64,000 bases of DNA from a candidate division FCPU426 bacterium (lineage in GTDB: Bacteria; Oederibacteriota; JAAXVQ01; JAUVAV01). Within the stretch, counting starts at the first letter, position 1; the number at the start of each line of letters is the position of its first letter. The stretch lies in assembly GCA_040756875.1 (NCBI GenBank), contig JBFLYH010000002.1, positions 735,078 through 799,077 of the forward strand. Reading direction: 5' to 3'. The notes under the pieces were generated by a model. That model ran no database searches. It saw nothing but the letters and a program-made list of their open reading frames with translations, and was not told the origin of the DNA. A program made the position numbers and the translations under genes. Below, piece after piece: positions 1 to 27,649 of this stretch.

Positions 1-886
1 GCCCCGCATCCTTCAAGGCCAGGGCCACCGACTGCCGGGTCCCCCACCCTTCGGGGTGCGGCGTGGACAGGTGGTACGCGTCGCTCGACCACCCATATCC
101 CAGCACCCGGGCGTAGGCTTTCCCGCCCCGTTGCCTCAGGCTCTCGCCGGATTCCAGCACCAGCGCCGCTCCGGCCTCGCCCATGATCAGCCCCCGCCGC
201 GCGCGGTCAAACGGGCGGCAGCAGTCCGGCGCCATGGCCCGCAGGCTGCAAAAGCCCGTGTAATCCGGCTCGGCCAGCAAATCCATGCCGCCGGCCAGAA
301 CCACGTCGGCCAGGCCCTGGCGAATGCGCTCCACGGCCAGGGACAGCGCGTAGCCGCTGGCCGCGCAGGCGTTCGTGTTCGTGCTCTGCCAGCCCGTGAG
401 CCCCAGCCGCTGCGCCATCTGGTAGAGAAAGCTGTAGGTCACGTTCTCGCTCACGATGTCGCGCGTGACCTCCAGGGCGCTGGCCAGGTCCTGCGTTTCC
501 CAGGTCCGCTTGCAGCGCACCACGTGCTCGTTCAGGTCGCCGTGGGTGGTGCCGAACACCAGGTCCACGGCGCCGTGCTGCGAGCGCTGGTCCGCGCCCA
601 GCCACCCCGCGTCCGCCAAGGCTGCCCGGCCGGCCGAGAGCGCCAGCCGCGCCGCCGGATCCAGGGCTTTTTGTTCCTCAGTGCTCAAGTTGCGCAGGCC
701 GTCCAAATCCTTGATCTGCGCGGCCATGTGCACGGGCAGCCAGCGGGTGTCGAAGCGCGTCACCGGGCCCACGCCGGACGTCCCGGCGACCAGGGCCGGC
801 CAGAACGCCTCCGCGCCCGCGCCCAGCGGCGTGTTCAGGCCCAATCCGGTCACATAGACTTCAGGCCTGCCGGCGCGGGCCGTCAT
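1..886 (-). CDS. Beta-ketoacyl-ACP synthase (FabF/KS-like), 5' part; runs off the left edge
   Basis: Not in the ORF track because there is no stop in the window. Hand translation from ATG 886 (ATGA overlap with the lnt stop) gives MTARAGRPEVYVTGLGLNTPLG...GTSGVGPVTRFD...STNTNACAASGYA...CRPFDRARRGLIMGE...WSSDAYHLSTPHPEG. The catalytic Cys is present. Confidence 0.92.
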   Translation of the reverse strand, partial: MTARAGRPEVYVTGLGLNTPLGAGAEAFWPALVAGTSGVGPVTRFDTRWLPVHMAAQIKDLDGLRNLSTEEQKALDPAARLALSAGRAALADAGWLGADQRSQHGAVDLVFGTTHGDLNEHVVRCKRTWETQDLASALEVTRDIVSENVTYSFLYQMAQRLGLTGWQSTNTNACAASGYALSLAVERIRQGLADVVLAGGMDLLAEPDYTGFCSLRAMAPDCCRPFDRARRGLIMGEAGAALVLESGESLRQRGGKAYARVLGYGWSSDAYHLSTPHPEGWGTRQSVALALKDAG

Positions 887-2592
887 GCCGGCCTCTCCTG
901 GCCGGACTTGGAAAAACGCTCGCGCCCCCAGCTCCAGGCCATCATCGCGACCAAAACGGCGGTCAGGCCCAGCACCAGCCATCCCATCCAGTCGCCGCAG
1001 CGCACGTAAACCGTTTTTCCGTTGAGCAGGGGCAGGCGTTTGACCAGCGCCGCGCGCTGGCCGAAGGGCGCGCGGTCGCGGACCAGGCCAAGCGGATCCA
1101 CGTACGCCGCGCTCGCCGTGCTCGAAACCAGCCCGACCCAGCGCCGGGTTTCCACGGCGCGGAAGCAAGCCATCTGCAGGCGCATGTTGAAAAACACCGG
1201 CGTGGGAAACCAGTTGCCCGTGCCGGCGTTCAGGATGACCTCGCCGCCCAGGCGCACGCCCTGGACGAAATACTGAGGAAACATGATTTCCTCGCACACC
1301 CGCAGGATCACCGCGCCCTGCGGCAGCTGGAACACCTTGCTGGCCGATCCAGGCGACAGGTCTTTCATGTCCTCGTCCACGGAGGTAAGCTTGAGCAGTT
1401 CGTAGGTCGTCGCGAAAACACGGTTCAGCAGGCGGATCGCGCCGTTCACCAGCGGCCGGCCGGGCATGTATTCCCCGAAGGGTATGAGGTACTGCTTCAG
1501 GTAATAATCGCGGATCTTTCCCTTCGCGTCGACCAGGTACCAAACATTGAAGCGCCGTTCGGAGTCCAGGGCGGTGACCAGCCCGATGATCGCCGGCACG
1601 CCCGCCTCCTCGAGTATGTCCTGGAAGTCCCGCCACACCTTGGCCGTGGAGGGCAGGGTCAAGGGCAGTGCGCTCTCGGTAAAAACCAGCAGCTCGGCGC
1701 GGTCGGCTTTGGCGTTCAGGGCCAGCCGGCGGAAAAGGACGATGGCGGACTGCTTGATGCGTTCGCTCCACTCGCCATAATTGCCCGCGTCGAACTGCCC
1801 CTGCAACAAGGCCGGACGGAGGCTGCGCTCGGCCTGCGATTGCAGGCGTTCCACCTTGGCCGCGTCGAGGTTGCCGGCCACGATCAGGGCCGCGAAGCCC
1901 AGGCCCAAAACCGCGGCCATCAGGCTGTTGACGAGAAGCGGGCGCCCCTCCGCGGCCGGCACCTTGCCGGCAAGCACGGGCTCGGGCCGGCGCACATCCC
2001 AGGCGCGCAGGAAGCGCCAGGCCAGGAGGGCCAGGCCGGCGGCCACGCACAGCACGAAATAATCAGCGCCCAGCACGCCGGTCAGGGACGCCATTTGCAT
2101 GAGCGGCGGAAGCCCGGCCAGCGGATACGCATACAGCAGAATGGGCGGCGGGAAGAACCAGATTTTGGGCGTCAGCACCAGGCGCAGAAATTCGAAGGCC
2201 GCAAAATTCGCCGGTGCGAACAGCAAATACCAGGCGGGAAAGCGGCGGATGCAGGCGCCGGCCCACAGGCCCACGTTCCCGAAAATGCCGTACACCATGG
2301 CCGCGAGAAAAAGAAAAATCAGCGGCGTGGCCAGGGGAAACGAGGGCAGCATCTCGAACCACAGGGTGGCGGGAATCAAAAACATGGCCAGGCCGGACAG
2401 GCCGCACCAGCGGTAGGCTTCGCGGCCCTGGTAGCGCAGCATAATCATGAAGGTGGGCATTGGCACCAGAAACACCAGCAGCGCGGACAGGATGTTCGAC
2501 TCCGGCAGCAGGTAATTGGGCCACGCGAGATAGGCGCACAGCGCCTGCAGGATCAGCAGCCATGGCATGGGGCGTTTCAACGCGGATACCAT
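883..2592 (-). CDS. lnt: Apolipoprotein N-acyltransferase-like protein (Lnt paralogue 1)
   Basis: Multi-TM N-terminus plus nitrilase-fold motifs FTESALP / YLKQYLIPFGE / RVCEE / RAVE. Start chosen at ATG 2592 behind GGAGG (the ORF track starts at 2637). Confidence 0.88.
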   Translation of the reverse strand: MVSALKRPMPWLLILQALCAYLAWPNYLLPESNILSALLVFLVPMPTFMIMLRYQGREAYRWCGLSGLAMFLIPATLWFEMLPSFPLATPLIFLFLAAMVYGIFGNVGLWAGACIRRFPAWYLLFAPANFAAFEFLRLVLTPKIWFFPPPILLYAYPLAGLPPLMQMASLTGVLGADYFVLCVAAGLALLAWRFLRAWDVRRPEPVLAGKVPAAEGRPLLVNSLMAAVLGLGFAALIVAGNLDAAKVERLQSQAERSLRPALLQGQFDAGNYGEWSERIKQSAIVLFRRLALNAKADRAELLVFTESALPLTLPSTAKVWRDFQDILEEAGVPAIIGLVTALDSERRFNVWYLVDAKGKIRDYYLKQYLIPFGEYMPGRPLVNGAIRLLNRVFATTYELLKLTSVDEDMKDLSPGSASKVFQLPQGAVILRVCEEIMFPQYFVQGVRLGGEVILNAGTGNWFPTPVFFNMRLQMACFRAVETRRWVGLVSSTASAAYVDPLGLVRDRAPFGQRAALVKRLPLLNGKTVYVRCGDWMGWLVLGLTAVLVAMMAWSWGRERFSKSGQERPA

Positions 2593-2608
2593 CCATCCCC
2601 TCCGGGTC

Positions 2609-4273
2609 TCAGGCGCCGGTTTTTCGGCGAGCCGCAACTACGGTCAGCAACAGCGTCAGCAGTACGCACAGCCAGGCAAACACATCTCCGAACCGCGCGT
2701 AAAAAGTCAGGCCGTCAAGCAAGGGCAGGGTCGGCACGGCCACCACCCGCTTCCCATAAGGTGTTTCACTCCGCACCGCGCCCAGGGCGTCGATTGTGGC
2801 CGCCGCGCCCATGTTGGCCACCACCCCGATCCAGCGCCGGGTCTCCACCGCCCGGAAGGCGCTTGTCTCCAGGTTTAAATACCAGTCCACCGGCGTCTTG
2901 AACCAGTTGACGGTCCTGGGCGTGAGAATCACATCGGCGCCTTGCATGACCGCCTGCCTGAAAAACCGGGGAATGATCGTTTCAGTGCATACCTTCAGCG
3001 CCACCCGTGCGCCGGCCACGTCAAATATTTTTTCCTGTTTGCCGGCACGAAGATCATAGTAATCCCGCGGAATGGCCGTAATTTTCAAGACCCGATAGGA
3101 CGTGCGCAAGAGTTTGTTTACTCCCGTCATCACCGGGTCCACCAAGCTGCGCAAGGGCAGGTACTCGCCAAACGGCGTCAGGTAGCGTTTGAGGTAATAA
3201 TCCTGGACCGTTCCCTGGGCGCTGATCAAATACCAGATATTGAAAACCTGCTCCTCCTCCACCGTGGTCGTAAGCCCCACGAAGGCCGGCAGGCCCACTT
3301 CCTTGAAGATGGTGCGGAGGTTCTGCCAGGCGTGCTCGTCCGCCGGCAGGGTCATGGGCAGTGCGTTCTCGGTGAAAACCAGCACCTGACCGCCTTGGGC
3401 CAGGGCTTCCAGGCTCATGTCACGATAGGTGCGCAGGGCAAATCCCTGCTGGGGCCTGCTCCAGTCCTTGGCCCGCGAGGGATCGAACTGGGATTGCAGC
3501 AACGCGGGACGCAGCGTGCGCCGCGCCTGGTCCTGCAGGCGGCTGACGCGCAGGGCGTCTACGTTACCCAGCATGAACAGCGCGAACAAAACCGCCACCG
3601 TGCCGCTGGCCACGGCCACTGTGAGGGTCCGCTGTCCGGGAGCGAGGGCGGGTATGTTCTGGGTGACGGGGAGGTGGGTGCGAAACCACGCCAGGCGGCC
3701 AAGAAGCGACAGCGCGACCAAGGCCAGGAGGGAGCTGATGAAAAAGGCAAGGAAAGCCGGTCCGTAGTATCCGGTGTAGGCGCTCATTTGGATCAGGGGC
3801 GGAAGCCCGGCAAAAGGAAAGGCAAACAACAACGAAGGAGGCGGCACCAGTGAAAAATGCTCGGCCAGCAGCACGCGCATGAACTCCTGGTTGCAAATGA
3901 TGGCCGGCGCCGCCAGGGTGAACGCCCAGGGCAGGCGCCGGTAAATGAACGAACCCAGATAACCGCAGGCGCCTCCCAGCAGAAAGGACAGCGCCAGTAC
4001 CAGCAGCCAAATCAATACGCCGGTCACGGGAAAGAAATTCATATGGACCAGGTGGACGGTCGGCAAAAGAACCATGGCCACTACAGATAATCCGGACCAC
4101 ACAAAAACCTGCCTCCCCCGGTAGGCCAGGAAGATGATGAAGTAGGTCGCGCCCATCAAGGGCAGGAGCAGGGCCGAAACGGGGTTGGGCCGGTAAAGGA
4201 TGGGGTTGGGAAACGCCAGAAAGGCAATCAGCGCCTGGATCAGCAGCAAACTTACGGAGAGAAAGGCTGGCAT
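2609..4273 (-). CDS. lnt: Apolipoprotein N-acyltransferase-like protein (Lnt paralogue 2)
   Basis: Motifs FTENALP / YLKRYLTPFGE / KVCTE / RAVE and the C-terminal TFYARFGD typical of Lnt. Confidence 0.88.
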   Translation of the reverse strand: MPAFLSVSLLLIQALIAFLAFPNPILYRPNPVSALLLPLMGATYFIIFLAYRGRQVFVWSGLSVVAMVLLPTVHLVHMNFFPVTGVLIWLLVLALSFLLGGACGYLGSFIYRRLPWAFTLAAPAIICNQEFMRVLLAEHFSLVPPPSLLFAFPFAGLPPLIQMSAYTGYYGPAFLAFFISSLLALVALSLLGRLAWFRTHLPVTQNIPALAPGQRTLTVAVASGTVAVLFALFMLGNVDALRVSRLQDQARRTLRPALLQSQFDPSRAKDWSRPQQGFALRTYRDMSLEALAQGGQVLVFTENALPMTLPADEHAWQNLRTIFKEVGLPAFVGLTTTVEEEQVFNIWYLISAQGTVQDYYLKRYLTPFGEYLPLRSLVDPVMTGVNKLLRTSYRVLKITAIPRDYYDLRAGKQEKIFDVAGARVALKVCTETIIPRFFRQAVMQGADVILTPRTVNWFKTPVDWYLNLETSAFRAVETRRWIGVVANMGAAATIDALGAVRSETPYGKRVVAVPTLPLLDGLTFYARFGDVFAWLCVLLTLLLTVVAARRKTGA

Positions 4274-4303
4274 GTTTGCTTGCCCTTTCTTCAGTCAGCC
4301 GAT

Positions 4304-4438
4304 ATGGAGCCCTCCGGGCATGCCCGGGGTACCCATTCCTGCCCTGCGTTTCTTGCAGGATAGGCGGCGACATCCTCGCAGCAGAAGATCCGCATTCATC
4401 CCCGGCCATAGGCCGGGGTTTCCTGCGAAGGGGATGAA
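4304..4438. repeat. Intergenic double-hairpin palindromic element
   Basis: Palindrome CCGGGCATGCCCGG (4314-4327); hairpin CCCCGGCC-ATA-GGCCGGGG (4400-4418); TTCATCCCC (4395-4403) is complementary to GGGGATGAA (4430-4438). Confidence 0.55.
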
Positions 4439-4482
4439 GTGGAGCCGCGTCGCGTTTCCGGGCCTTCTCCCAGCGAAGCTGC

Positions 4483-6120
4483 CTACGGACGCCGGGTGGC
4501 GGCGAACGCGACCAACAGCAGTATCACCAATACGCACAGCCAGGCAAACAGGTCGCCGAAGCGTGCGTAAAAAGTCAGACCGTCCAGCAACGGGAGCGTC
4601 GGCACGTCCACCGCCCGTATTCCGTAGGGTGTTTCGCTCCGCACCACGCCCAGGGCGTCGACGGTGGCCGCGGCGCCCATGCTGGCCACCAGGCCGATCC
4701 AGCGCCTGCTTTCCACCGCCCGGAACGAACAGGCCTCCATGTTCAAATACCAGTCCACCGGCGTTTTGAACCAATTGACCGCCCTGGGCGAGAAAAACAC
4801 TTCCGCTCCCTGGTTGACCGCCTGCCTGAAAAACCGGGGGATGGTGGTCTCGGTGCAGACCTTGAGGCTGACCCGGGCGCCGGCCACGGCGAACACCTTC
4901 TCCTCCCGTCCTGCGCCCAGATCGTAATGATCGTTGGGAATGGCGGTGATTCTGAAAATTTTATAGCTCGTGTTGAGCAAGGCGTTTACGCCGCCCAGCA
5001 CCGCATCCACCAATCCGCGCAAGGGCAAATACTCGCCAAAGGGGGTTAAGTACCGCTTGATATAATGATCCTCCATTTCGCCTTGCGCGCTGATCAGATA
5101 CCAGACATTGTACGTTTCCTCGTCTCCCACGGTGGTGATCAGGCCCACGAAAGCCGGCAGTCCGGTTTCCCTGAAAATGCCGCATAAATGCTGCCAGGCC
5201 TGCTGTTCCCCGGGCAGGGTCAGAGGCAGCGCGTTTTCAGTGAACACCAGCACCTGGGCCTGCTTGGCCACGGCTTCGTAGCACATCTGCCGGTAGGTGC
5301 GCAGCGCGAATCCCCTCTGGGGCGGGCCCCATTCCGGAGCCTGGGAAGGGTCGAACTGGGATTGCAACAGGGCGGGCCGGATCACGCGCTGCGCCTCCTT
5401 TTGCAGGCGGCTGAAGCGCATCGCGTCCGCGTTTCCCAGCACAGCCAGGAACAACAGGCCCGCGGCCACGGCCACGGACACCAGGCCGGCCAGCCGGCGC
5501 TGGGGCGCGGTTAAAACCAGATCCGGCTTGATCCAGCCGGCCCGCGCCAGGAATTCCGCCGCAACTTGGGCCAGGACCGCGCCGACGAAAAACACCATGA
5601 GCGCCGGCCCGTACAAACCCGTGAACGCACTCATTTGGATTAAAGGCGGCCAGCCGGCCAGGGGCAGGGACAGGGTGAACGACGGAGGCGGAACCAGCGA
5701 AAAAACTTCCGACAGCAGGACCCGGCCGAATTCCTCGCCGCACAGCAAAACCGGGGCCGACAGGGAAAACGACCAGGGCAAACGCCGGAAGATGAATGCG
5801 CCCAGGGACCCGTAGGCGCCGCCCAGCAGGAACGTCAGGGCGAGCGTCAGCAGCCAGAGCAACGCGCCGGTTACGGGAAACAAACTAATTTGGGTCAGGT
5901 GAAACGTCGGCAACAGGACAACAGCCGCCACGGAGAGTCCGGTCCAGAGAAAAGCCTGGCGCCCGCGGTATAGCAGGACAAATAAAAAAACCGGGGCCAA
6001 CGCGAGCGGCAACAGCAGGGCTGACACCGGATTGGGTTTCATGAGCAGGGGGGTGGGATAAGCCAGGAAAGCCATGAGTGCTTGCACCAGCAATACCAGC
6101 ACAGACACCTGCATCGGCAT
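4483..6120 (-). CDS. lnt: Apolipoprotein N-acyltransferase-like protein (Lnt paralogue 3)
   Basis: Motifs FTENALP / YIKRYLTPFGE / KVCTE / RAVE / TFYARFGD. Start at ATG 6120 chosen by alignment with paralogue 2 (MPMQVSV.. vs MPAFLSV..); GTG 6171 is the alternative. Confidence 0.88.
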   Translation of the reverse strand: MPMQVSVLVLLVQALMAFLAYPTPLLMKPNPVSALLLPLALAPVFLFVLLYRGRQAFLWTGLSVAAVVLLPTFHLTQISLFPVTGALLWLLTLALTFLLGGAYGSLGAFIFRRLPWSFSLSAPVLLCGEEFGRVLLSEVFSLVPPPSFTLSLPLAGWPPLIQMSAFTGLYGPALMVFFVGAVLAQVAAEFLARAGWIKPDLVLTAPQRRLAGLVSVAVAAGLLFLAVLGNADAMRFSRLQKEAQRVIRPALLQSQFDPSQAPEWGPPQRGFALRTYRQMCYEAVAKQAQVLVFTENALPLTLPGEQQAWQHLCGIFRETGLPAFVGLITTVGDEETYNVWYLISAQGEMEDHYIKRYLTPFGEYLPLRGLVDAVLGGVNALLNTSYKIFRITAIPNDHYDLGAGREEKVFAVAGARVSLKVCTETTIPRFFRQAVNQGAEVFFSPRAVNWFKTPVDWYLNMEACSFRAVESRRWIGLVASMGAAATVDALGVVRSETPYGIRAVDVPTLPLLDGLTFYARFGDLFAWLCVLVILLLVAFAATRRP

Positions 6121-6253
6121 TTTCTTTGGGTCCTTTCCTCTGCCGGACGATTCCCGGTACGGCAACTTCACGCCCGTTCCGAAAAACGCCTGCTTTTTTG
6201 GGCTATTCCGGCGCCCGCCAAGCGCCGCGGATTCAAATGCGCCGGATATCCTT

Positions 6254-6291
6254 GAATAATAACATACTTTGCGAGGATCGCCAAAACGTAT
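6254..6291 (-). promoter_or_regulatory. Sigma70-like promoter, copy 1 (upstream of lnt-lnt-lnt-KS)
   Basis: Minus strand reads ATACGTT-TTGGCG-17 nt-TATTAT with TG at the extended -10 position. 32/38 identical, without gaps, to 11348-11385. Confidence 0.75.
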
Positions 6292-6352
6292 CTCCGCTTC
6301 ATCTTGCTGGCGCTGGATGGAACCAATGGTGCGGCAGGACCAGGGGGGAGGT

Positions 6353-7531
6353 TTAGGCGGGCAATTCCAGCAGGCAGGCCATGGCTTTGCGATCCTGGTC
6401 CAGGGCCATGACCATGGCCCGCCGGGCGTTCAATGGACGAGCCGTCATAGGCAGGTAAAGCTCGCGCGCGGCCCCAGACGAAGGCAAACGCTGCGTTGGC
6501 AACAGGAGGCGATGCTCGAGGCAGAGAATGGCCAGCACTGCGGCCATGGCACCGGCGGCGTGCCATGTTTCCCCCAGTGCTCCCTTGAGCGCGGTCATGG
6601 GCGGCCGCTGGTTCCCAAAAACGTTTTTCATGCTTTCCATCTCAGCCTGATCCTGCGCCGGATCGCCATTGGCGGCAAGAAAAACCGCTTCCACGTCCCC
6701 GGCCTTCCAGCCGGCGTCAGCCAAAGCCGCGGCGATGGCTTGGTTGCAGGCGCGGGGATCGCCTTGGCCGGCTGCCTCCGGATTATATGCCATGCCAAAG
6801 CCGCATAGCCGGGCCCTGGGGCGCAGCCCCTGTTGACGAGCTTCGTCGGCTCTCAACAAAAACATCCAGGCTGAGCCTTCTCCGAGATCAACGGCGCCCG
6901 GACGCCAGCCCTCCAGGATTCCCGTCCCTGATCCGGGGGGAGCGCCGGGCCCGGAAAAACCCCGCACCATTCTGGCACTGATTTCCTGAACCGCACCGGC
7001 TGCCACCTGCCGGGCCCGGCCGGTGGATAAAACCCGACACGCGGTTTCCAATGCTTCCAGCCCGGCCGTATGCCCGGTGGACATCGTCAAAATGAACGCC
7101 TGGATCCCGAGGAGGATCGACACTTGGCTGGCCGTGGCATTCGCCGACAGATTCAGAAAAAAGAAAGGGCTCATCAGATGATATTCGCGGGTGGACAAAA
7201 CCTGCAGGATGGTGTCGGAATAAATGTCCGGCGTGAATCCGGTCACCAGGCCGGTCTCCGCCGCCGCCGGTGGCTGCCCCGTGTCTTTCGCCCAGGCCTG
7301 CCACAAGCGGCGGCACGCTGCGCCGGCCAGCAGGGACGAACGTGTGAACCCCTGTTTTTTTCCGTTGCCCAGCAACACCCGGAGGTCCTGGGACACCGGG
7401 GCGCTTTCGGTCCCGTCGGACCCGCGTGTCAATCCCTGCCGGCCGGCGGCCAGGCTATCGAAAACCGCCTGCGGGTCGTCGCCCAGGGCATGCACCAGGC
7501 CAAGGTGGGTGATTACGATCGCGTCTTTCAC
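6353..7531 (-). CDS. Non-catalytic ketosynthase / chain-length-factor-like subunit
   Basis: Thiolase/KS fold (VITHLGLVHALG, LGEGSA). The active-site Cys region reads STGHTAG, HGTGT is replaced by AANGD and GH by GE. GTG 7531 overlaps the upstream KS stop (GTGA). Confidence 0.82.
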   Translation of the reverse strand: MKDAIVITHLGLVHALGDDPQAVFDSLAAGRQGLTRGSDGTESAPVSQDLRVLLGNGKKQGFTRSSLLAGAACRRLWQAWAKDTGQPPAAAETGLVTGFTPDIYSDTILQVLSTREYHLMSPFFFLNLSANATASQVSILLGIQAFILTMSTGHTAGLEALETACRVLSTGRARQVAAGAVQEISARMVRGFSGPGAPPGSGTGILEGWRPGAVDLGEGSAWMFLLRADEARQQGLRPRARLCGFGMAYNPEAAGQGDPRACNQAIAAALADAGWKAGDVEAVFLAANGDPAQDQAEMESMKNVFGNQRPPMTALKGALGETWHAAGAMAAVLAILCLEHRLLLPTQRLPSSGAARELYLPMTARPLNARRAMVMALDQDRKAMACLLELPA

Positions 7532-8742
7532 GCAGGCCCGCTTTCGGCCTGCTGCAAGATCAGGCTGAGGTTGTTGCCGCCGAATCCCATGGCATTGACC
7601 ATGCACGTTTCCAGTCTGCCCGCCTTGGGCTCGGACACGACTACGGGCAGCGGACAGTCCGGATCCATCTCGATCGTTTCGGAAACCGGCGGGATCTGTC
7701 CCTCCCGCAGCATGAGCGCCGCAGACAGAATGTCAACCGCCTGGGCCGCGCCCTGTGAATGCCCCACGCGGGGTTTGAACGCCGTGACCGGCGGCAGGTC
7801 CGGACCGAAGACCGCCTGCAGGGCCCGGGCTTCCGCGCGGTCGTTGCTGGGCGTTCCGGTGCCGTGAGCCACCACACAGCTGATCTGCGCAGGCGCCAGC
7901 CGGGCCGCCTGCAACGCGCGCCGCATGGCGGTTTCCAGACCTTCGCCGCGGGGCCGGGGCGCGGAAATATGATAAGCGTCCGCGGACCAGCCTTCTCCGG
8001 CCAGTCGCGCCCACGGCCGCGCGTTCCGGCTCCGCGCGGAATCGGCCGATTCCAGAAGAAACATGGCGGCCGCGTCGCCCAGCATCGTGCCTTCTCGGCC
8101 ACGGTCGAACGGCCGGATGCACGACGGCGCCAGGGCCCGCAGGTTGGCGAACCCGGCCTGCACGACCTCGGCAAACAGGTCCGCAGCCCCGCACAAGACC
8201 GCTTCCGCACGCTCCAGGCGGATGAGGTCCGCGGCCAGGGAAACAGCGTACCCGGCCGCGGCGCAGGTGTTGGTGTTCAACCCCTGGGCCTCCCGCAATC
8301 CCAGCGCCCGGGCCATGTCCGTTAAAAAAGCATAGGGTTGCCGCTCACGAAATCCCGCGCCCAGGGTCTCCTCCGGTTCCCTGCGCAGGTAGTTTTCGCC
8401 GTCATTCAAACCGCCGTTGCTGGTGCCGAGCAGCACGGCGAGGCTAGGCAACCGGCTGCGCCGCTCCTCTGACAGCAGGCGGGCATCCGCCAGAGCCTGC
8501 CGCGCGGCCGACAAAGCGGCGGCGGCGAGCCGGCTGAGGCGTCCGGTTTCCTCCGGGTCCAGCCACTGATCAGCGGCCAATGGCTCGATTTCGGCGCCGC
8601 GAACAAAAGCCAGGCCCTGGGTATTGAATTTTTGTATGGGTTTTATTCCTGAACGGCCTTCCAGGCAGGCTTGCCAATAAGGCGCTACGCCGATTCCCAG
8701 TGGCGTAACCGCTCCCATCCCTGTGATCCAAACATCCCTCAT
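7528..8742 (-). CDS. Beta-ketoacyl-ACP synthase (FabF/KS-like)
   Basis: VWITGMGAVTPLG, NTCAAA (Cys), AHGTGT (His) and KPRVGHSQGA (His) give a complete Cys-His-His triad. Start at ATG 8742. Confidence 0.93.
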   Translation of the reverse strand: MRDVWITGMGAVTPLGIGVAPYWQACLEGRSGIKPIQKFNTQGLAFVRGAEIEPLAADQWLDPEETGRLSRLAAAALSAARQALADARLLSEERRSRLPSLAVLLGTSNGGLNDGENYLRREPEETLGAGFRERQPYAFLTDMARALGLREAQGLNTNTCAAAGYAVSLAADLIRLERAEAVLCGAADLFAEVVQAGFANLRALAPSCIRPFDRGREGTMLGDAAAMFLLESADSARSRNARPWARLAGEGWSADAYHISAPRPRGEGLETAMRRALQAARLAPAQISCVVAHGTGTPSNDRAEARALQAVFGPDLPPVTAFKPRVGHSQGAAQAVDILSAALMLREGQIPPVSETIEMDPDCPLPVVVSEPKAGRLETCMVNAMGFGGNNLSLILQQAESGPA

Positions 8743-8862
8743 GGTTCTTCCTTGTTCGTTTGATCCTGCCACCCGGCCTGCGGGATGGGCATCATGACCA
8801 GGTGCCAAAGCAGACAGGAAGCTTTTGGACCGTATTCGCCGCTTGACGCCGCGTGGAGCCGG

Positions 8863-9174
8863 TCAGCCCGCGCCCCCGCCGCTTTCAGAAGGAGGCGCGG
8901 ACGGCGTCCGGGCTTTATCTTCCATTTTCCGGCGGATGAGCTCGACCACCTGGCCGAGCTGGGTCACCTGTTTCAGATCCTCCTCGGAAAGACCCACGCC
9001 GTAGCGGCGCTCCAGGGTCACCAGGACCTCGAGCAGGGCCACGGAATCGATCTGCATGATCTGTTCCAGTGAACCGTCGAGCCGCACCTGGTCGGGGTCC
9101 ACTTCCAACACCTCGACCACGAGGTCCTTGATTTCCTGTTCCAGATTTTCGGGGATAGGTTTCTGCTCGGTCAT
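8863..9174 (-). CDS. Acyl carrier protein
   Basis: Acidic ~100-aa protein with phosphopantetheinylation motif QIDSVALLE. ATGA overlap with the stomatin gene stop. Confidence 0.9.
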   Translation of the reverse strand: MTEQKPIPENLEQEIKDLVVEVLEVDPDQVRLDGSLEQIMQIDSVALLEVLVTLERRYGVGLSEEDLKQVTQLGQVVELIRRKMEDKARTPSAPPSESGGGAG

Positions 9175-10031
9175 TTCTTCCCCGCCGTGGCTGAACTGAT
9201 CCGCTCAGCCAGGGGTTTCAGAAAACCAAGAAATTCCATGGGCAGAATGTACTTGGCCGCCGGGCTTTCGCCGAGCGCCTTCAGGGCCTCGAGATACTGC
9301 AGGCTGATGGTCTTGTCGTCGATGCGGTTGGCGGCCGCGAAGATTTTTTCCAGGGCCTGGGCATACCCCTCGGCCTTCAGGATCTGGGCCTGGCGTTCGC
9401 CCTCGGCCTGCAAAATCCGCGATTGCCGGTCGCCTTCGGCCACGGTGATGGAAAACTGCTTTTTACCGTCCGCTTCCAGCACCAGGGCGCGCCGGGTCCG
9501 CTCGGCGGCCATTTGCTTGTTCATGGCCTCCTGCACGTCGGCCGGCGGCTGGATCTCGCGGATTTCCACGGTCGTAACCTTGACGCCCCAGCGCTCGGTG
9601 ACTTCGTCCAGTTTGGCCCGCAGCACGCGGTTGATGTCCTCGCGCTTGGCCAGCACGTCGTCCAGGGGAATGTCGCCCACCACCGCGCGCAGCGTGGTCA
9701 TGGCGATGCCCTGCGCGGCGCCGGAGAAATTGCGCACTTGGACCACCGAGTGCACGGGGTTGGTCACCTTGAGGTAGATGAGGAAGTCGATGGCAATGGG
9801 CGCGTTGTCCTTGGTGATGCAGGTTTGGGAGGGGATCTCCAGGAAAATTTCCCGCAGATCGACGCTCACGACTTTATCGATGAACGGAATGATCACCACC
9901 AGGCCCGGCCCGAGCTGGCCCTTGCAGGCCCCCAGGCGGAAGAGCACCAGGCGCTGGTACTCGGGAACGATTTTCACCGCCATCATCACCAGCAGCACGG
10001 CGGCCGCAATCAACGTGGCATAGACACCCAT
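9171..10031 (-). CDS. SPFH / stomatin (band 7) family protein
   Basis: N-terminal TM, then RLVLFRLG...GPGL...ITKDNA...TTLRAVVG...WGVKVTTVEIREI and QMAAER. Confidence 0.95.
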   Translation of the reverse strand: MGVYATLIAAAVLLVMMAVKIVPEYQRLVLFRLGACKGQLGPGLVVIIPFIDKVVSVDLREIFLEIPSQTCITKDNAPIAIDFLIYLKVTNPVHSVVQVRNFSGAAQGIAMTTLRAVVGDIPLDDVLAKREDINRVLRAKLDEVTERWGVKVTTVEIREIQPPADVQEAMNKQMAAERTRRALVLEADGKKQFSITVAEGDRQSRILQAEGERQAQILKAEGYAQALEKIFAAANRIDDKTISLQYLEALKALGESPAAKYILPMEFLGFLKPLAERISSATAGKK

Positions 10032-10050
10032 GACAAGCCTCCCTGGAAAT

Positions 10051-11316
10051 TTATTCCGGCGCGACCGGCCGGACTTTCAGACGCAGTCCCTCGACTGCCT
10101 CGACCACCACGCGCTGGTTGGGCGCCAGCGGGCCGGACTCGCCCGTGGCCAGCCAGTCGTCGCCGGCCACGTGCACGATCACGCCGGCCATGGTTTTCGC
10201 CGTGACTACACCTTGGGCTCCGACCAGGCTTTCCGTACCCGAGATGGCCGGCCGCCGCCTGAGGCGCAGCGCCACCAGCGCGAACAGCATCACATAAGCC
10301 ACGGTCAGGCCGCTCATGGTCGCCAGCACCGACGTGGCCAACCGGAACGAGGGCAGGTCCGAGGGGAACAGCATGAACGATCCCAAAATCAGGGACACGG
10401 CGCCGCCCGCGGCCAAAATCCCGTGGCTCACGACGAATGCCTCCAGCACCAGCAGCACCGCGCCCAAGACCAGCAGGAGCAGGCCGGTGAGCGAGAGCGG
10501 CAGGCCTTCGAAACCCATAAGCGCCAAGAGCAGGCAGATGGCGCCCGCCACGCCGGGCAGGATCGCGCCCGGGCTCGCCAATTCGTAAATCAGCCCGTAC
10601 ACGCCCAGCAGAAACAATACGTACGTCAGATTCGGATTGGACAGGGCGTGCAGCAGCTCCTCGGTCGGCCGCACGGGCACGGGCTGCACCGGCCGGCCGG
10701 CAAGTTCCAGTTGCGGGTCCTTGGCCGCGATCTGCCGCAGCAGATCGTCGACGTCCGGGGCGATAAAATCCGCCACGCCCTGTTTGAGCGCCTCCTCGGC
10801 CGGCAAAGACAGGCTCTTGGTCACCATGCGGCCGGCCGCGTCTTCGTTGCGGCCGCGCCGGCGCGCCAGGCCGACCAGGTAGGCCGCTGCGTCGTTGGTG
10901 ATTTTGGCCGAGGCTTTCTTGCCCTGCAAATCCACCGGGTGCGCGGCGCCAAGGTTGGTGCCGGGCGTCATGGCCAGGTACGTGGCCGCTGCGCCGATGA
11001 AGGCCCCAGCTGAAGCCGCGCGGGCGCCGGCCGGATGCACGTACACCGCGGTGGGCACGGAGGCATTGAGCAGGCTCTTGGTGATGCGCCGCATGGAGGG
11101 ATCCAGGCCGCCCGGCGTGTCCAGAACGAGCAGCACCAGCGCGGCGTCAGCCTTGTGGGCGCGGGCCAGGCCCCGTTCCACGTATCGGGCCAAAATCGGG
11201 TCGATGATGCCTTCCACGTCCAGCCGTATCACCGGTCCGGCGGCCGCCTGGGCCCACCCCGGGAAACCGGCCATAATCAAGGCTATAGCTGCGATCCATC
11301 CCCGTTGTGTTCGCAC
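10051..11316 (-). CDS. nfeD: NfeD-family membrane-bound serine protease (long form)
   Basis: Signal peptide, LDTPGG, AASAG, GAAHPV, a TM bundle and a C-terminal OB-like region. Start at GTG 11316 behind AGGGG; the ORF-track start 11367 lies inside the promoter. Confidence 0.92.
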   Translation of the reverse strand: MRTQRGWIAAIALIMAGFPGWAQAAAGPVIRLDVEGIIDPILARYVERGLARAHKADAALVLLVLDTPGGLDPSMRRITKSLLNASVPTAVYVHPAGARAASAGAFIGAAATYLAMTPGTNLGAAHPVDLQGKKASAKITNDAAAYLVGLARRRGRNEDAAGRMVTKSLSLPAEEALKQGVADFIAPDVDDLLRQIAAKDPQLELAGRPVQPVPVRPTEELLHALSNPNLTYVLFLLGVYGLIYELASPGAILPGVAGAICLLLALMGFEGLPLSLTGLLLLVLGAVLLVLEAFVVSHGILAAGGAVSLILGSFMLFPSDLPSFRLATSVLATMSGLTVAYVMLFALVALRLRRRPAISGTESLVGAQGVVTAKTMAGVIVHVAGDDWLATGESGPLAPNQRVVVEAVEGLRLKVRPVAPE

Positions 11317-11347
11317 GGCAACACCCCTGGGCAGCGAGGATAATAGT

Positions 11348-11385
11348 GAATAATAGCATATTTTCAAGGGATCGCCAAAACGTAT
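11348..11385 (-). promoter_or_regulatory. Sigma70-like promoter, copy 2 (upstream of nfeD-stomatin-ACP-KS-CLF)
   Basis: Minus strand reads ATACGTT-TTGGCG-17 nt-TATTAT with TG extended -10. Near-identical to 6254-6291. Confidence 0.75.
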
Positions 11386-11395
11386 TGGCGGGCGC

Positions 11396-11716
11396 TCAGT
11401 GCAGCTTGATCTGATGCTCCTCGGGGCCGGCTGCGGCTTCCTTGATTTCGCCGAACACCTGCTCGTAGCGCGTGACGTTTTCGGACAGGGCGCGCAGGAA
11501 CCGCTTGGTGTGCCCGGGCGAACTGATGACGCGCGCCCGCACTTTGGCTTTGGGCTGCTGGGGCTGGACGAAGATGAAATCCATCACGAACTCCGTAGCG
11601 TTGTGGGCAACCAGGGCCAGGTTGACGTAGGCGCCCTGCGACGTGGCCTCGTCGATCTCCACCTGGAGCTGCAGCCCCTGCTGCGCAGGGGTTTCGGGGG
11701 TTTTGGGTTTGTTCAT
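11396..11716 (-). CDS. DUF3467 family protein
   Basis: GAYVNLALVAHNATEFVMDF...ARVISSPGHTKRFLRALSENVTRYEQVFGEI matches the family pattern as I recall it. Confidence 0.85.
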   Translation of the reverse strand: MNKPKTPETPAQQGLQLQVEIDEATSQGAYVNLALVAHNATEFVMDFIFVQPQQPKAKVRARVISSPGHTKRFLRALSENVTRYEQVFGEIKEAAAGPEEHQIKLH

Positions 11717-11717
11717 G

Positions 11718-14700
11718 TCATTGTCCTCCTGGGACGCGATAAATGCGCACGCCCTGCTGGTCGTAGACCAGGTCCAGCAGGCGGCTGAATTTTTCCAGAC
11801 CCGCGCCAGAATAGGCGCGCCGCTCGTTCTCGCCCACGAACACGTATTTGACGCGGTAGCGCCGCATGAGCTTCAGCGCCTGGCCCACATCCAGCGTGGA
11901 ATAAATCGTATCCGCGTCGCGCGTGTGGCTTGCGGTCAGTTCGGGATGGTAGCGCATCTGCTCTTCCTGCCCCACCCAGCCGATCAGGGTGGGCAGGCCG
12001 GTGAAAATCGCCACGCGCGTGTCGAAGCAATTGTACCCCCGCACGCCCGGCGCTTCCAGCACCACCTCCGTGCGGTCCACATTCTGCCGCAGCCACTCCA
12101 GGGCCGGGGCCTCGCTGCTGAGCAGGTTCCGCAGGTAGGCGAAGCCGTCGAGGGTCGGCCGCTTGAAAGCGGAGCATAGCCGCATGCGGTCGTAGACCGA
12201 CACCGGCGCGTACAGGGCCGCCACCAGGACCACGGCCGCCAGCACGCCGGCCCAGACGGCGCGGGACCACGCCGGCCTCGGCCAGAGCGCCCAGGCCAGG
12301 GGCGCGCCCAAGAGGCTCGCCGCCAGAACCCACGCCAGCCAGGGCCAGCTTTCGGTTTCCTGGAAATAATTGGCCGCGGCCCACAAGGCGAGCACGCCCA
12401 GGCCCAGCAGCAACAGCCGCCACCAGCGGCCGCGGCCGAACAGTTCCTGCCAGCGCTTCCCTTCCTCGCGGGTGCCGGGGAAAAGCCGGGCCAGCAGGCT
12501 GGCGGCCACCAGGGCGAAATAAATCCATACCACCATGTAGAACTTGAACACTGTGTTCATGCGGCTCATGTCGCCGCCCACGCCCATGAAGTCGCGGACG
12601 TGCACCAGCTCGCAGCCCCAGACCACGGCCAGGCCCAGCACGGCCAGCAGCATGGTCAGGCGCAGTTGCGGCGAGAGCGGCTGCCAGCCCAGGCTGTACA
12701 CAGCGGCCAGCAGCAGGAGCGAAAGCACGGCCAGCAGGACCTGGTCGAACATCAGCAACACCACGAGGACCACCAATCCGGAGAGCGCGGCGTACAGGGC
12801 CAGGGGATGCCTGGCCCACACCGTGGCGGCCACGCGCTGCAGGCGCTCCCACCAGGCCAGGCGCGACCGGCTGGCCCAGCCCCACTGCTTCAGCTGGCGC
12901 TGGGCCTGGGGCACGAGCTGCTGGGCCCAAAAAGTGACGGCCAGGAACACCACCAGCCCGAAAAATTCCAAAAACTCCTTGAGGGGCGTGCGCACCGCCG
13001 GATTGACCCAGGCCAAAGAGGTGGATTGCGGTTTGAAGTTCCAATGGAAGAAAAACATCAGCGCCAGGCCGCCCACCACCAGACGCAGCCAGGCCAGGCC
13101 CGCCTCGCCCAGTTCGGCCCAGGGGAAGACGCGCGCCGCGCGGCCCTTGCGTTCCTGGAAGGTTTTAGCCGCCAGCACGCCCAGGCACAGCAGGGCGTAG
13201 GGCGGGAAATTCCAGGTGTTAATCGCGGACAGGGCGCCGAGCGTCAAGGCGGTCACGAAGAAGGCCAGCCCGCGCTCCGTGCCCGTGCGCCCCGGCGCCT
13301 CCAGGAGCAGGCTGCGCTCGCGCGAGGGCGAGAGCAGGTTCATGCCCCAGGCGATCAGTGGCAGGGAGTACGGCATGGCAATAATGTGCGCGTGCAGATC
13401 GCCGTACAGGAACGAGAACCAGGGCATCTCGTTGATGGTGCCCTTGATAAGGCGCGTCGGATTCCAGATGAATTCGAACCGCCCCGCGTGGCGCAGGGCA
13501 TCGCCGAACGTGCGGCCCAGGTTGGTGAAGATATCGCCCACGTGCCAGGCGCGGTTGAACGGCTCCATCAGGTAGAAGAAGGTGTGCAGGTTGCCGGCGA
13601 GCATGGCCGCCCCGGCCGCAACCAGGCCCCAGCGCCGCTTGCCCGTCAGCGCCAGGCCCAGGCCGTACACGCCCGTGAACGTCAAGGCAAACAGCAGGGA
13701 CAGGCAGATCTGATACGACCACTGCGGCGGCACGCCGATCAGCTTGGCCAAAATGCCCAGGATCATCTGGCCGTAATAATAATAGTTGATGGAATAGCCG
13801 GACAGCCACGGATCATAGGGCGGAAAGTGCAGGCTGTGGTACACCGCGGAGAGGAAGGTCACGCCCATGGGCTCGCCGCCGCCGTTGTAGCCCTGGCCGT
13901 AGGGGTTCTTGATGTCCGGATTGTACAGCTTGGTCAGCAGATACAGGACAAAGACCGCCAGAAAAACCGCTTCAGCGACCAGCCACTCCCGGCCGCGCAG
14001 GCGCAGGAACTCGCGGATCTCGACGCGCCGGTGGTAGGCCCACAGCAGCGAGGCGCCGGCCAACAGCAGCAGCACCAGGGCCGAGGTGCCCTGCAGGTGC
14101 CGGGCCAGTCCCGCGGAGACCAGCATCCACACCACCCAGGTGAACACCAGGGTGCCGATGATTTTCGCCAGGGCCAGCCCCGAGTCCGGCAGCCGCGGAA
14201 ACAGGCTCAGGCACAACGGCAGGGCCAGGAGGCCGATGAACTCCACCAGGAGCAGCCAGGCCAGGCTCGCGGTGAAACCGTTGAGCCGGCCCAGCACGAA
14301 CACCGGGCGGCCCTGGGGTTCCCCGATGTTGGCGTTGACCACCGTGGGCAGTTCGCCCGCCGCAGGTTTGACGGCCGCCGGTTTCGGCGCCTGAACGCGG
14401 GCCGGGACTTTTTCGGCCACACGGCGCTGGATCTCGACCACGCGCTCGTCCAGGCGCCGCGCCTGCTCTTCGGGCGCGAGCGGCGGGGATTGCCGCCGGA
14501 AAAGATACACGTGCGGATGGTCGTAGAGCGTGAAACTTTCGTCCGCCGCGTCGTCCGCGAATTCGCGGCCGAAGAGCGAGGGATAATTCTTGAACTCCGC
14601 CGCCAGCTTGAATCCCAGCCGCCCCTCGAACATCAGCTCGTAGTACGCCGCGTTGATAGGGTAGCGCTCGGGCAGGCGGCGGTACACCGCGTGCGCCCGG

Positions 14701-16349: not shown

Positions 16350-16352
16350 GGA

Positions 16353-17225
16353 CTATTTCAGATACAGGATGAGCCCCACGGTCAGGACCCACAACAGGAT
16401 CGCCACGATCATGGGCCGGTCGCGCAGCAGGATCATCTCAGGCGCGCCGCCCTGGTTTTTCTGGTAGACGAGATAAAGATAGCGAAGCACGCCGTAAAGC
16501 ACGAACGGCACGGTGAGCATCAGTGAGCGGTAATCCTGGGCCGTGGCCGACGTGGCGGCGTAGAGGCAGTAGGCGATGATCGTGGCCGAAGCCACCACGC
16601 CCATGATCTGGTCGAGTAGCTGGGCGGAATATTCGCCCAGGGAACGGCGGTGCTGGGTCGCTTTCTCCCCCAGCACCAGGAGTTCGTGGCGGCGTTTGGC
16701 GAAGCCGAGGAACAGCGAGAGCAGCGTGGTCACGATCAGGAGCCAGCTGGAAATCGGCACCTGGATCAGCCAGGCGCCGGCCGCAGCGCGCAGCACGAAG
16801 CCCGCGGTCACGGTAAAGACATCGAGCAGCACCGCGTGCTTCAGGCCTAGGGAGTAGGCCGCGTTCAGCCCCAGGTACAGCAGCACCACGCCGAGCATGA
16901 GAGGCGAAAGGGCCGCGCTCCAGGCCAGGCTGATTGCCAGCAAAACAAAAGCGCCGGTCACGGCCGCCCGGGGCGAGATGGCTTTGGACGCCAGGGGCCG
17001 GTTTTTCTTCTGGGGATGGAGCCGGTCGCCGGGCATGTCCCGCCAGTCGTTGAAGATGTACACCACGCCGGCTGCCAGGCAGAAAATGACGAACAATTGC
17101 AACACTTGCAGCAATTTCGCGGCGTCGAACAGGTTGGCGGAAAACACCAGGCCCGCGAACACCACCAGGTTTTTCGTCCACTGTTTGGGCCGGATGAGCT
17201 GCAGGAACGCTTTCAGACCGCGCAT
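16353..17225 (-). CDS. UbiA-family decaprenyl-phosphate phosphoribosyltransferase-like protein
   Basis: RPKQWTKN, YIFNDWRD, DRLHPQKKNRPLAS, YSLGLKH, GFVLR, KRRHEL. Confidence 0.9.
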   Translation of the reverse strand: MRGLKAFLQLIRPKQWTKNLVVFAGLVFSANLFDAAKLLQVLQLFVIFCLAAGVVYIFNDWRDMPGDRLHPQKKNRPLASKAISPRAAVTGAFVLLAISLAWSAALSPLMLGVVLLYLGLNAAYSLGLKHAVLLDVFTVTAGFVLRAAAGAWLIQVPISSWLLIVTTLLSLFLGFAKRRHELLVLGEKATQHRRSLGEYSAQLLDQIMGVVASATIIAYCLYAATSATAQDYRSLMLTVPFVLYGVLRYLYLVYQKNQGGAPEMILLRDRPMIVAILLWVLTVGLILYLK

Positions 17226-17259
17226 GGAAATTCCTTGAAATAAGGGGATTTTAAGGCAA

Positions 17260-17289
17260 ATGGTATCATTCAGAGGCGCGGGGTGTCAA
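17260..17289 (-). promoter_or_regulatory. Putative sigma70 promoter of the ubiA-GT-C-DUF3467 unit
   Basis: Minus strand TTGACA-18 nt-TACCAT with TG extended -10. Confidence 0.55.
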
Positions 17290-17321
17290 GGCGGATTGCC
17301 TGTCCTGCCCCGGTTGCCCAG

Positions 17322-17356
17322 AAAAAAGCCCCGGCCGCAGGAACACGGCCGGGGCT
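17322..17356 (-). terminator. Rho-independent terminator
   Basis: Minus strand AGCCCCGGCCG-TGTTCCTG-CGGCCGGGGC followed by TTTTTT, just after the stop at 17374. Confidence 0.85.
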
Positions 17357-17373
17357 TGAATCGCAGAGGAATA

Positions 17374-27492: not shown

Positions 27493-27649
27493 GCCCAATC
27501 CTTATCAAGATGAGATGGGACCGCTAAAAAGCGCAACGTATATCCACTGCAAGCAGGGATGCGCGGGTTTTTCGGCGAATATATATGTGAATACTAACTA
27601 TATCCCAGGATGGGGGTTTTAGCAAGTTAGGCAGGAATGAACGGGAGGG

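Follow-up and report, generated by a model that had tools for sequence, protein, structure and literature searches.

A separate clade of putative Lnt-like acyltransferases encoded within a ketosynthase and chain length factor cassette of a candidate division FCPU426 bacterium and its relatives

Why do three genes for proteins resembling Lnt, the apolipoprotein N-acyltransferase, lie among ketosynthase genes? Lnt is regarded as a housekeeping enzyme with a single task and as a target for antibiotics. The question is raised by a stretch of 64,000 nt from a candidate division FCPU426 bacterium (assembly GCA_040756875.1, contig JBFLYH010000002.1), in the following called the window, which corresponds to G000:C2:735078-799077 in our numbering of genomes and contigs. 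The initial annotation of the window had proposed that this locus makes a non-standard acyl chain and installs it by amide formation. Our own, tentative reading, to which we assign a probability of about 0.4, is an acyl relay in which a private chain would be loaded on a lysolipid by a PlsC-like enzyme and then transferred to an extracytoplasmic amine by the Lnt-like proteins.

Genes were called from open reading frames (ORFs) in combination with Pfam and NCBIfam, and the left flank of the window was read on contig C2. Plain positions refer to the window and those preceded by G000:C2 to the contig. The whole gene set lies on the minus strand and follows, from right to left, the order acyl carrier protein (ACP), active ketosynthase (KS1), chain length factor (CLF1), Lnt1, Lnt2, Lnt3 and KS2. 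Left of the window the operon continues with the remainder of KS2, CLF2, a hotdog protein, a PlsC-type protein and a FabG-like short-chain dehydrogenase/reductase (SDR), followed by CinA.

8863..9174, minus strand: ACP of 103 amino acids (aa), Pfam PP-binding at 1.2e-10, with the serine in a DSV motif
7528..8742 (alternative TTG start at 8808), minus strand: KS1, active ketosynthase with both Pfam ketoacyl-synthase domains (N and C)
6353..7531, minus strand: CLF1, a KS homologue without the triad, GTG start, both Pfam ketoacyl-synthase domains
4483..6171 (likely true start an ATG near 6120), minus strand: Lnt1, type A, CN_hydrolase at 5.9e-09
2609..4273, minus strand: Lnt2, type A, CN_hydrolase domain
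883..2637 (alternative start near 2592), minus strand: Lnt3, type B, CN_hydrolase domain
1..886 (the first 295 codons; complete gene at G000:C2:734704-735963), minus strand: KS2, active ketosynthase of 419 aa, assigned by Pfam
G000:C2:733514-734716, minus strand: CLF2, second dead partner, left of the window
G000:C2:733006-733485, minus strand: FabZ-like hotdog protein of 159 aa without the catalytic His, no Pfam match at 0.001
G000:C2:732316-733002, minus strand: PlsC-type acyltransferase, PF01553 at 4.1e-17
G000:C2:731524-732276, minus strand: FabG-like SDR, best model TIGR01830

All members of the gene set listed in the initial annotation (an ACP, an active KS, a dead KS, three lnt paralogues and another Cys-containing KS) were found in place and in the same orientation. 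Both overlaps that it had pointed out can be read in the sequence, a GTGA shared by the KS1 stop and the CLF1 start and an ATGA shared by the stop of the last lnt gene, Lnt3, and the KS2 start. Two further overlaps join KS2 to CLF2, over 13 bases, and the stop codon of an upstream SPFH gene to the start of the ACP gene, the latter being an ATGA that had been missed. If this SPFH gene and the adjacent NfeD gene are counted in, 14 genes follow each other on the same strand with short gaps or overlaps. Because KS2 possesses its own dead partner, CLF2, beyond the edge of the window, the locus encodes two KS/CLF pairs and not one pair plus a lone KS. Promoter and terminator scans yielded nothing above chance levels that would divide the operon. 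On the coding strand, the gaps of 181 bp and 209 bp before Lnt1 and Lnt2 contain no convincing ORF for a small acceptor peptide, and no Rfam family was detected across positions 1-18000 of the window, while the left flank yielded only a tRNA.

The Lnt-like proteins stand apart from ordinary Lnt. Against the equivalog model TIGR00546, with a cut-off of 132.9 bits, Lnt1, Lnt2 and Lnt3 score 128.6, 132.3 and 143.1 bits, respectively, and matches to the Pfam LNT_N domain stay below its threshold (17.5 and 19.9 versus 27.1 bits). Lnt1 and Lnt2 share 66-67% identity and Lnt3 is about 41% identical to Lnt2. A profile search against 1.84 billion representative proteins gave 23,870 matches at E <= 0.001, among which 15 score between 302 and 814 bits, the next one reaching 208 bits. 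A word-indexed protein search retrieved 8 proteins at E <= 1e-20 among 8000 scored candidates. In a maximum-likelihood tree of 45 rows, 40 of them different, the Lnt clade falls on one side of a branch with an SH-like approximate likelihood ratio (SH-aLRT) support of 100. The tree also shows two paralogue types, type A (Lnt1 and Lnt2), encoded after ACP or CLF1, and type B (Lnt3), encoded before the hotdog gene.

The residues expected of an active enzyme are largely preserved in this clade. The Glu-Lys-Cys triad (E302, K362 and C429 in Lnt2), the PFGEY motif and a Trp-Phe pair are invariant in all 14 genomic clade copies. For a wider comparison we used 26 clade rows, excluding the 216-aa fragment P0021, and nine ordinary Lnts chosen without a rule from the next-best 135 matches. 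The triad, which aligns with the triad region of solved Lnt chains, and PFGEY are retained in 24 of the 26 clade rows; the other two, the metagenomic members P0019 and P0020, no longer carry Glu, Cys and the Trp-Phe pair and are, judged by these losses, probably inactive derivatives. Two features distinguish the clade. The distance from the Tyr of PFGEY to the catalytic Cys is 57-59 residues in all 26 clade rows versus 39-54 in the nine ordinary Lnts, and the residue directly following the Cys is aromatic in eight of nine ordinary Lnts and in none of the 26 clade rows. Relative to the Pseudomonas aeruginosa Lnt chain, the cluster Lnt has an insertion of 14 residues. In the Atlas, the model of Lnt2 matches an Lnt family cluster along 505 residues, with a template modelling (TM) score of 0.86. 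Hydropathy and the positive-inside pattern agree with the Lnt topology, from which the catalytic domain is predicted to face outside the cytoplasm. The Lnt-like proteins constitute a separate, rare clade that still looks active.

If Lnt and the synthase belong together, their genes should stay together in related genomes, as the initial annotation had expected, and this was indeed the case. Copies of the clade Lnt (E <= 1e-60) were identified in 10 of 99 genomes of the phylum, all belonging to two families of a single order, and in none of the 84 genomes of 21 other families in the phylum. In eight relatives we located nine loci with a clade Lnt, and eight of these adjoin cassette genes, comprising ACP, Lnt, hotdog, PlsC, KS, CLF and SDR or most of them. 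The order-level relatives G012, G013 and G014 possess the minimal set of these seven genes, and the family-level relatives carry in addition a second KS/CLF pair and extra Lnt copies. Even within the genus the arrangement varies, as G001 lacks KS1, CLF1 and Lnt1 and differs in gene order. The cassette was found in at least four genomic contexts: it is flanked by DUF2298-DUF3467 and CinA genes in G000, G001, G003 and G005, by lipopolysaccharide (LPS) core genes and lpxK in G007 and G009, by the gene for ribosomal protein L13 in G012, and by a radical SAM gene and pabB in G014.

The components also share their presence and absence. Among 41 genomes, the ten with a clade Lnt (at least 272 bits) are the same ten that encode the hotdog protein without the His (at least 180 bits), and the CLF type occurs in these ten plus the fragmented genome G006 (87% complete). 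Two genera of the same order, g2 (three genomes) and g8, lack clade Lnt, hotdog and CLF alike. In a metagenome scan seeded with the hotdog protein, seven loci were obtained, of which one is a true relative, holding the entire cassette including Lnt. As a control we inspected ordinary lnt genes from many phyla with at most 32% identity to the Lnt alignment, 80 loci among the matches listed, and none of these 80 has a KS, CLF, ACP, hotdog or PlsC neighbour (tblastn, E <= 1e-6). Because such neighbours occur at 0 of 80 control loci versus eight of nine loci of the relatives, the linkage between Lnt and the synthase exceeds chance. The stretch is contained in one DNA run and in no RNA run among those listed; this DNA run carries the label groundwater metagenome and may be the source sample.

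What, then, could the synthase make? The triad of Cys, His and His in KS1 can be read in NTNTCAAAG, AHGTGT and VGHSQG, and KS2 carries a Cys-His-His triad likewise, according to its translation and alignment A3. In CLF1 the same alignment shows the Cys replaced by Gly, the first His by Ala and the second by Glu; the Cys and both His residues are missing from CLF1, CLF2 and five orthologues. A triad-bearing KS thus adjoins and overlaps a triad-less homologue, the arrangement known from KS/CLF pairs. The fabF model gives the cluster KS proteins 281 (KS1) and 333 bits at a cut-off of 494. Among solved structures, KS1 is closest to 9s5h_B (1.4e-72), with 248 bits versus 217 for ordinary FabF; KS2 is closest to the same chain, with 276 versus 268 bits for the next, Iga11 (6kxd). 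CLF2 has its best relative in 9s5h_C (111 versus 101 bits). The closest solved relatives of KS1, KS2 and CLF2 are the two chains of one heterodimer entry. For the ACP the best solved match, at 42 bits, is 7qv0_D, the carrier protein in a complex with the anammox FabZ variant.

The initial annotation had suspected reductases and dehydratases past the left edge. Indeed, this flank encodes a FabG-like SDR as well as a FabZ-like hotdog protein, but the latter lacks the catalytic His expected of a dehydratase. The SDR reaches 233.4 bits with TIGR01830 (cut-off 297.75) and shows the glycine-rich motif as well as a YAAAK sequence (Tyr-x3-Lys) in its translation. The hotdog protein scores 41-42 bits with FabZ models, far below their cut-offs (40.7 versus 155 for TIGR01750), and for the orthologue from G003 the Pfam FabA model gives 29.1 bits at a cut-off of 23. 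A profile of nine hotdog orthologues retrieves FabZ structures, the best being 8ayc at 5e-20 (75 versus 64 bits), and the Atlas model agrees with a FabZ-like fold at a TM score of 0.81. The structural neighbours in the Atlas bear ApeP-like labels; neither the ApeI nor the ApeP family of Pfam was matched at E <= 10. Opposite the catalytic His of GHFP lies a position that varies within the family and holds a Ser in this genome, and no position among the nine orthologues holds an invariant His, while the catalytic Glu (E80) is invariant. Hence the protein has a FabZ-like fold but neither the His/Glu pair nor a score above cut-off that mark a FabZ dehydratase; on the grounds of its sequence it is a FabZ-fold protein predicted to be unable to act as a canonical dehydratase. 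The PlsC-type protein contains the HX4D motif (HASHLD in the translation) and matches the general PlsC, Aas-type and OlsA-type models with 46, 37 and 24 bits, none of them near the cut-off.

Housekeeping counterparts of these proteins are encoded elsewhere in the same genome. A plsX-fabH-fabD ... fabF operon is located on contig C1, where the genes for Lgt and LspA also lie adjacent to each other, and three ordinary lnt genes (TIGR00546, 256-275 bits) were found at G000:C1:879392-880618, G000:C2:1076571-1077818 and G000:C2:1099431-1100711. PF01553 acyltransferases number two in the genome, the housekeeping one and the cluster copy. Since a separate fab operon, Lgt and LspA as well as three ordinary copies of lnt are present, no cluster gene is a housekeeping gene. 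This disposes of two ways in which the proposal could have failed, namely that the cluster KS proteins are housekeeping FabF, as they score 281 and 333 bits versus 637 for the fabF on C1, or that the cluster holds the sole Lnt. Six Lnt-family genes are unusual for a genome of 3.2 Mb; the two ordinary copies on C2, which are each other's sister paralogues, are separated by about 23 kb.

From the gene content, the intact motifs, the separate Lnt clade, the conserved linkage and the joint presence and absence, all observed directly, we infer every chemical step of the acyl relay as well as its chain and acceptor. With the private ACP as carrier, the two KS/CLF heterodimers and the FabG-like ketoreductase would assemble a chain of defined length, and because the FabZ-like partner lacks the catalytic His, this chain may keep a 3-hydroxy group. 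At the cytoplasmic face, the PlsC-type enzyme would esterify a lysophospholipid or glycerol phosphate with the ACP-borne chain. Once this lipid had reached the outer leaflet, the catalytic Cys of the Lnt-clade enzyme would take up the chain and pass it to an envelope amine, either the N-termini of lipoproteins or another amine-bearing molecule, and the lysolipid would be regenerated. A lipid intermediate is needed here because a catalytic domain predicted to be periplasmic could not take the chain directly from a cytoplasmic ACP, and the PlsC-like enzyme is the obvious candidate for making it. The three Lnt paralogues (A, A, B) probably differ in donor or acceptor. In a more far-reaching version, which we regard as doubtful, the clade would be the first Lnt branch with a dedicated chain supply and would form the amide on a target other than a lipoprotein, candidates being an amine-bearing glycolipid, LPS or an aminolipid, with types A and B serving different targets.

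Several observations weigh against the relay. The carrier genomes are kin, so that the counts of co-occurrence do not represent independent events. The third clade copy of G003 stands alone, away from cassette genes, and the Lnt locus of G007 lacks PlsC, which is found on another contig with a second KS/CLF-SDR set. Since the matches of the PlsC-like protein to the PlsC, Aas and OlsA models are about equally weak, they leave its substrate open. The cassette encodes no flippase such as LplT, and neither an enoyl reductase nor an evidently active dehydratase, so completing a long chain would need housekeeping help.

These gaps leave room for other explanations, which share most of the enzymes and differ in the product. 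One follows the logic of ornithine lipids: the Lnt-like protein would N-acylate a small amine or an amino-acid head group with a 3-hydroxyacyl chain, and the PlsC-like protein would esterify a second chain. A 3-hydroxyacyl product is plausible given the ketoreductase and the missing His of the FabZ-like protein, three paralogues could suit different head groups, and the PlsC-like protein weakly matches the model of the lyso-ornithine lipid O-acyltransferase (24 bits, E 1.6e-05). Yet this match lies far below the 300-bit cut-off and the general PlsC model scores higher, the cassette contains no genes for head-group synthesis, and direct use of acyl-ACP in the manner of OlsB does not fit an Lnt-like domain predicted in the periplasm and an ACP and PlsC-like protein in the cytoplasm. 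We therefore consider such an aminolipid unlikely. About as unlikely in our view is a remodelling of phospholipids, in which the Lnt-like protein would strip the sn-1 chain onto any acceptor and the PlsC-like protein would refill the lysolipid with the private chain, a bulk membrane lipid being the actual product, comparable to the phospholipids of anammox bacteria with their special chains. For this speaks that ACP, hotdog, KS and CLF have their best solved relatives in the anammox Cluster I proteins, which the accessible text of a preprint regards as makers of membrane fatty acids (10.64898/2026.05.19.726425), that Lnt and Aas form a known lysolipid cycle, as described in the accessible part of PMC11416262, and that the genome possesses only one non-housekeeping PF01553 enzyme. 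However, no Lnt would be required for a special chain to be installed by PlsX and the housekeeping PlsC, a trio of Lnt paralogues would be an expensive means of providing lysolipid, and ordinary FabF and FabZ trail by modest margins (248 versus 217, 276 versus 268 and 75 versus 64 bits).

It could also be that no pathway is shared at all and that the Lnt-clade proteins are lipoprotein N-acyltransferase paralogues which merely lie beside a co-inherited set of fatty-acid genes. All carriers belong to one order, hence common descent accounts for much of the synteny; one clade copy is solitary (G003:C27), and six Lnt-family genes in the genome indicate that the family is generally expanding. But the adjacency persists across protein identities of 30-47%, reordered genes and the at least four flanking contexts, Lnt3 and KS2 are translationally coupled, Lnt clade, hotdog and CLF are jointly absent from g2 (three genomes) and g8, and 0 of the 80 ordinary lnt loci among the matches listed have such neighbours. 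Mere proximity thus appears quite improbable.

Upstream of the ACP gene, two further genes belong to the same run:

9171..10031, minus strand: SPFH/band-7 protein (Pfam Band_7, 4.1e-38), translationally coupled to ACP, its membership in the pathway being uncertain
10051..11367, minus strand: NfeD membrane protease, SPFH partner (Pfam NfeD domains), a same-strand neighbour of uncertain membership

The adjacency of NfeD, SPFH and ACP recurs in G001 and G004. In three of the 80 unrelated loci among the matches listed, all three labelled Acidobacteriota, an ordinary lnt gene is directly preceded by an NfeD-SPFH pair, and there may be a recurrent link of SPFH scaffolds with Lnt enzymes. Next, at 11718-17225 of the window, a DUF2298 protein of 1543 aa with a PMT_2 (GT-C type) domain adjoins a UbiA-family prenyltransferase; the DUF2298-DUF3467 pair stays upstream of the cassette in G000, G001, G003 and G005. 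At 17374-21660 a protein of 1428 aa with LVIVD/FG-GAP repeats and a C-terminal sorting domain of the type IX secretion system (T9SS) type is encoded, with a subtilase of 1267 aa containing FG-GAP repeats nearby (23695-27498). The third-position GC of the former is 0.63 versus 0.79-0.88 in its neighbours.

Of two possible links suggested by the flanking genes, the one to radical SAM enzymes was dropped. A B12-binding radical SAM gene lies beside the cassette in G014 and another near it in G001, but the two share only 22% identity, and the G001-type gene is absent beside the cassette in other carriers. Heptosyltransferase genes of glycosyltransferase family 9 (GT9) and lpxK surround the cassette in genus g7 and in no other genus, which provides a weak hint to an acceptor only. 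Separately, G012:C87 and G014:C3/C12 yielded weak CLF-like matches (95-99 bits) that lie no more than about 5 kb from B12 radical SAM genes akin to the one near the G001 cassette; the g9 genomes may hold another lipid system of KS and radical SAM.

The genome of the window encodes additional sets with ketosynthases. At G000:C3:2000-21000 (8294-13034 within), genes for an acyl-CoA dehydrogenase, a KS, a weak KS-like partner and an LpxL-type lipid A acyltransferase adjoin tuf and nusG; this set may make a secondary acyl chain for lipid A. Another one, at G000:C1:908000-926000 (1229-11100 within), resembles a beta-branching cassette and comprises genes for an Sfp-type phosphopantetheinyl transferase (PPTase), a class I/II aminotransferase, an ACP, an SDR, an enoyl-CoA hydratase, an enzyme similar to 3-hydroxy-3-methylglutaryl (HMG)-CoA synthase, another SDR and two KS. 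In G003:C27 (9832-19982 within the locus) the solitary clade Lnt lies beside an ORF of 2774 aa without a Pfam match at 1e-4.

A separate clade always wired to a private synthase would mean that specialised lipid chemistry at the outer face of the inner membrane has made use of the Lnt scaffold, and that a cell can choose the chain that Lnt-type enzymes move by making a dedicated donor lipid. The cassette further represents a second, non-anammox setting for the set of FabF, dead FabF, FabZ variant and ACP that has been studied for ladderane synthesis. Genetics is not possible for ladderane makers; the seven-gene cassette is simpler, and its expression in a laboratory host could reveal the product of such a KS/CLF pair. 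Being rare and limited to a single order of an uncultured phylum, the cassette probably carries little ecological weight.

How does this locus compare with known systems? The initial annotation knew of no described pathway pairing Lnt with ketosynthases. We likewise found neither a characterised cluster nor any description in the literature that joins Lnt with ketosynthase, chain length factor or gene-cluster terms, although supplementary tables may hold some. The parts belong to known families; their combination and the Lnt clade are undescribed in the literature found. The general equipment recalls the highly reducing type II polyketide synthase (PKS) and aryl-polyene clusters, which contain KS/CLF, ACP, ketoreductase, hotdog dehydratases and a lysophospholipid-type acyltransferase. 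In such clusters this PlsC-family acyltransferase is thought to anchor the chain on a lipid. The cassette shares with them the KS/CLF pair with a discrete ACP, the SDR ketoreductase, a small hotdog protein and a PlsC-family acyltransferase. Further points of similarity are the second place of Iga11 (6kxd) among the solved relatives of KS2 and the ApeP-like labels around the hotdog protein in the Atlas. Unlike those clusters, it lacks starter genes of the adenylation or ammonia-lyase kind, a glycosyltransferase gene and LolA/MMPL genes for export. We know of no Lnt-family gene in clusters of these two types, and none appeared in the literature found.

In the synthesis of ornithine lipids, OlsB N-acylates and OlsA esterifies a second chain onto the 3-hydroxyl. 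The cassette likewise combines an N-acyltransferase with a PlsC-family O-acyltransferase, acting on ACP-borne and possibly 3-hydroxy chains, and the PlsC-like protein weakly matches the OlsA model. Here, however, the N-acyltransferase is of the Lnt/CN-hydrolase type with a domain predicted in the periplasm instead of a cytoplasmic GNAT-type enzyme, and a dedicated KS/CLF synthase is present.

The clade resembles Escherichia coli Lnt in its full-length fold, the Glu-Lys-Cys triad, PFGEY, the Trp-Phe pair and a catalytic domain predicted outside the cytoplasm. It differs from it as a separate clade with a longer segment between PFGEY and Cys, no aromatic residue after the Cys, and up to three paralogues. 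According to the accessible part of PMC11416262, E. coli Lnt takes the sn-1 chain of phosphatidylethanolamine (PE), and the acyltransferase domain of Aas re-acylates the resulting lyso-PE with acyl-ACP. As in this Lnt/LplT-Aas cycle, a PlsC/Aas-type acyltransferase and an ACP are available for the re-acylation of lysolipid. In contrast to it, the genes lie within a KS/CLF operon, the cassette has no LplT gene, and acyl-ACP would be supplied de novo by KS/CLF and the ketoreductase, not by an acyl-ACP synthetase domain.

The closest parallel to the synthase is anammox Cluster I (amxACP, amxFabZ and amxFabF2/amxFabFmut), for which ladderane synthesis has been proposed. The accessible text of the preprint describes a KS/CLF-like heterodimer of two FabF homologues from anammox bacteria, which decarboxylates malonyl-ACP with a preference for short chains; membrane fatty acids are the presumed product of the Cluster I genes (bioRxiv 10.64898/2026.05.19.726425). 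The structure series 7qv0/8ay represents the anammox FabZ variant, as given in the accessible part of PMC10139942. Molecule names and chain pairing suggest that 9s5h is the heterodimer of the preprint, the accessible text of which does not name the code. Beyond Cluster I, the cassette adds the ketoreductase, the PlsC-type and the Lnt-clade enzymes, and no catalytic His is present in its hotdog protein; homologues of the B12 radical SAM enzyme or of phytoene dehydrogenase are found neither in the cassette nor in the operon of G000. A term search of the comparative ladderane paper PMC2649909 gave 0 occurrences of "acyltransferase" and "apolipoprotein". Both systems have a discrete ACP, a FabZ-type hotdog protein and an active KS next to a triad-less partner, and the replacement of the second His by Glu is common to the CLFs described here and the anammox chain 9s5h_C. 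ACP, hotdog, KS and CLF all have anammox entries as their best solved relatives (7qv0_D, 8ayc/7qv0, 9s5h_B and 9s5h_C, respectively), and although the margins of these entries over ordinary FabF and FabZ are modest, the agreement across four proteins weighs more than the single scores.

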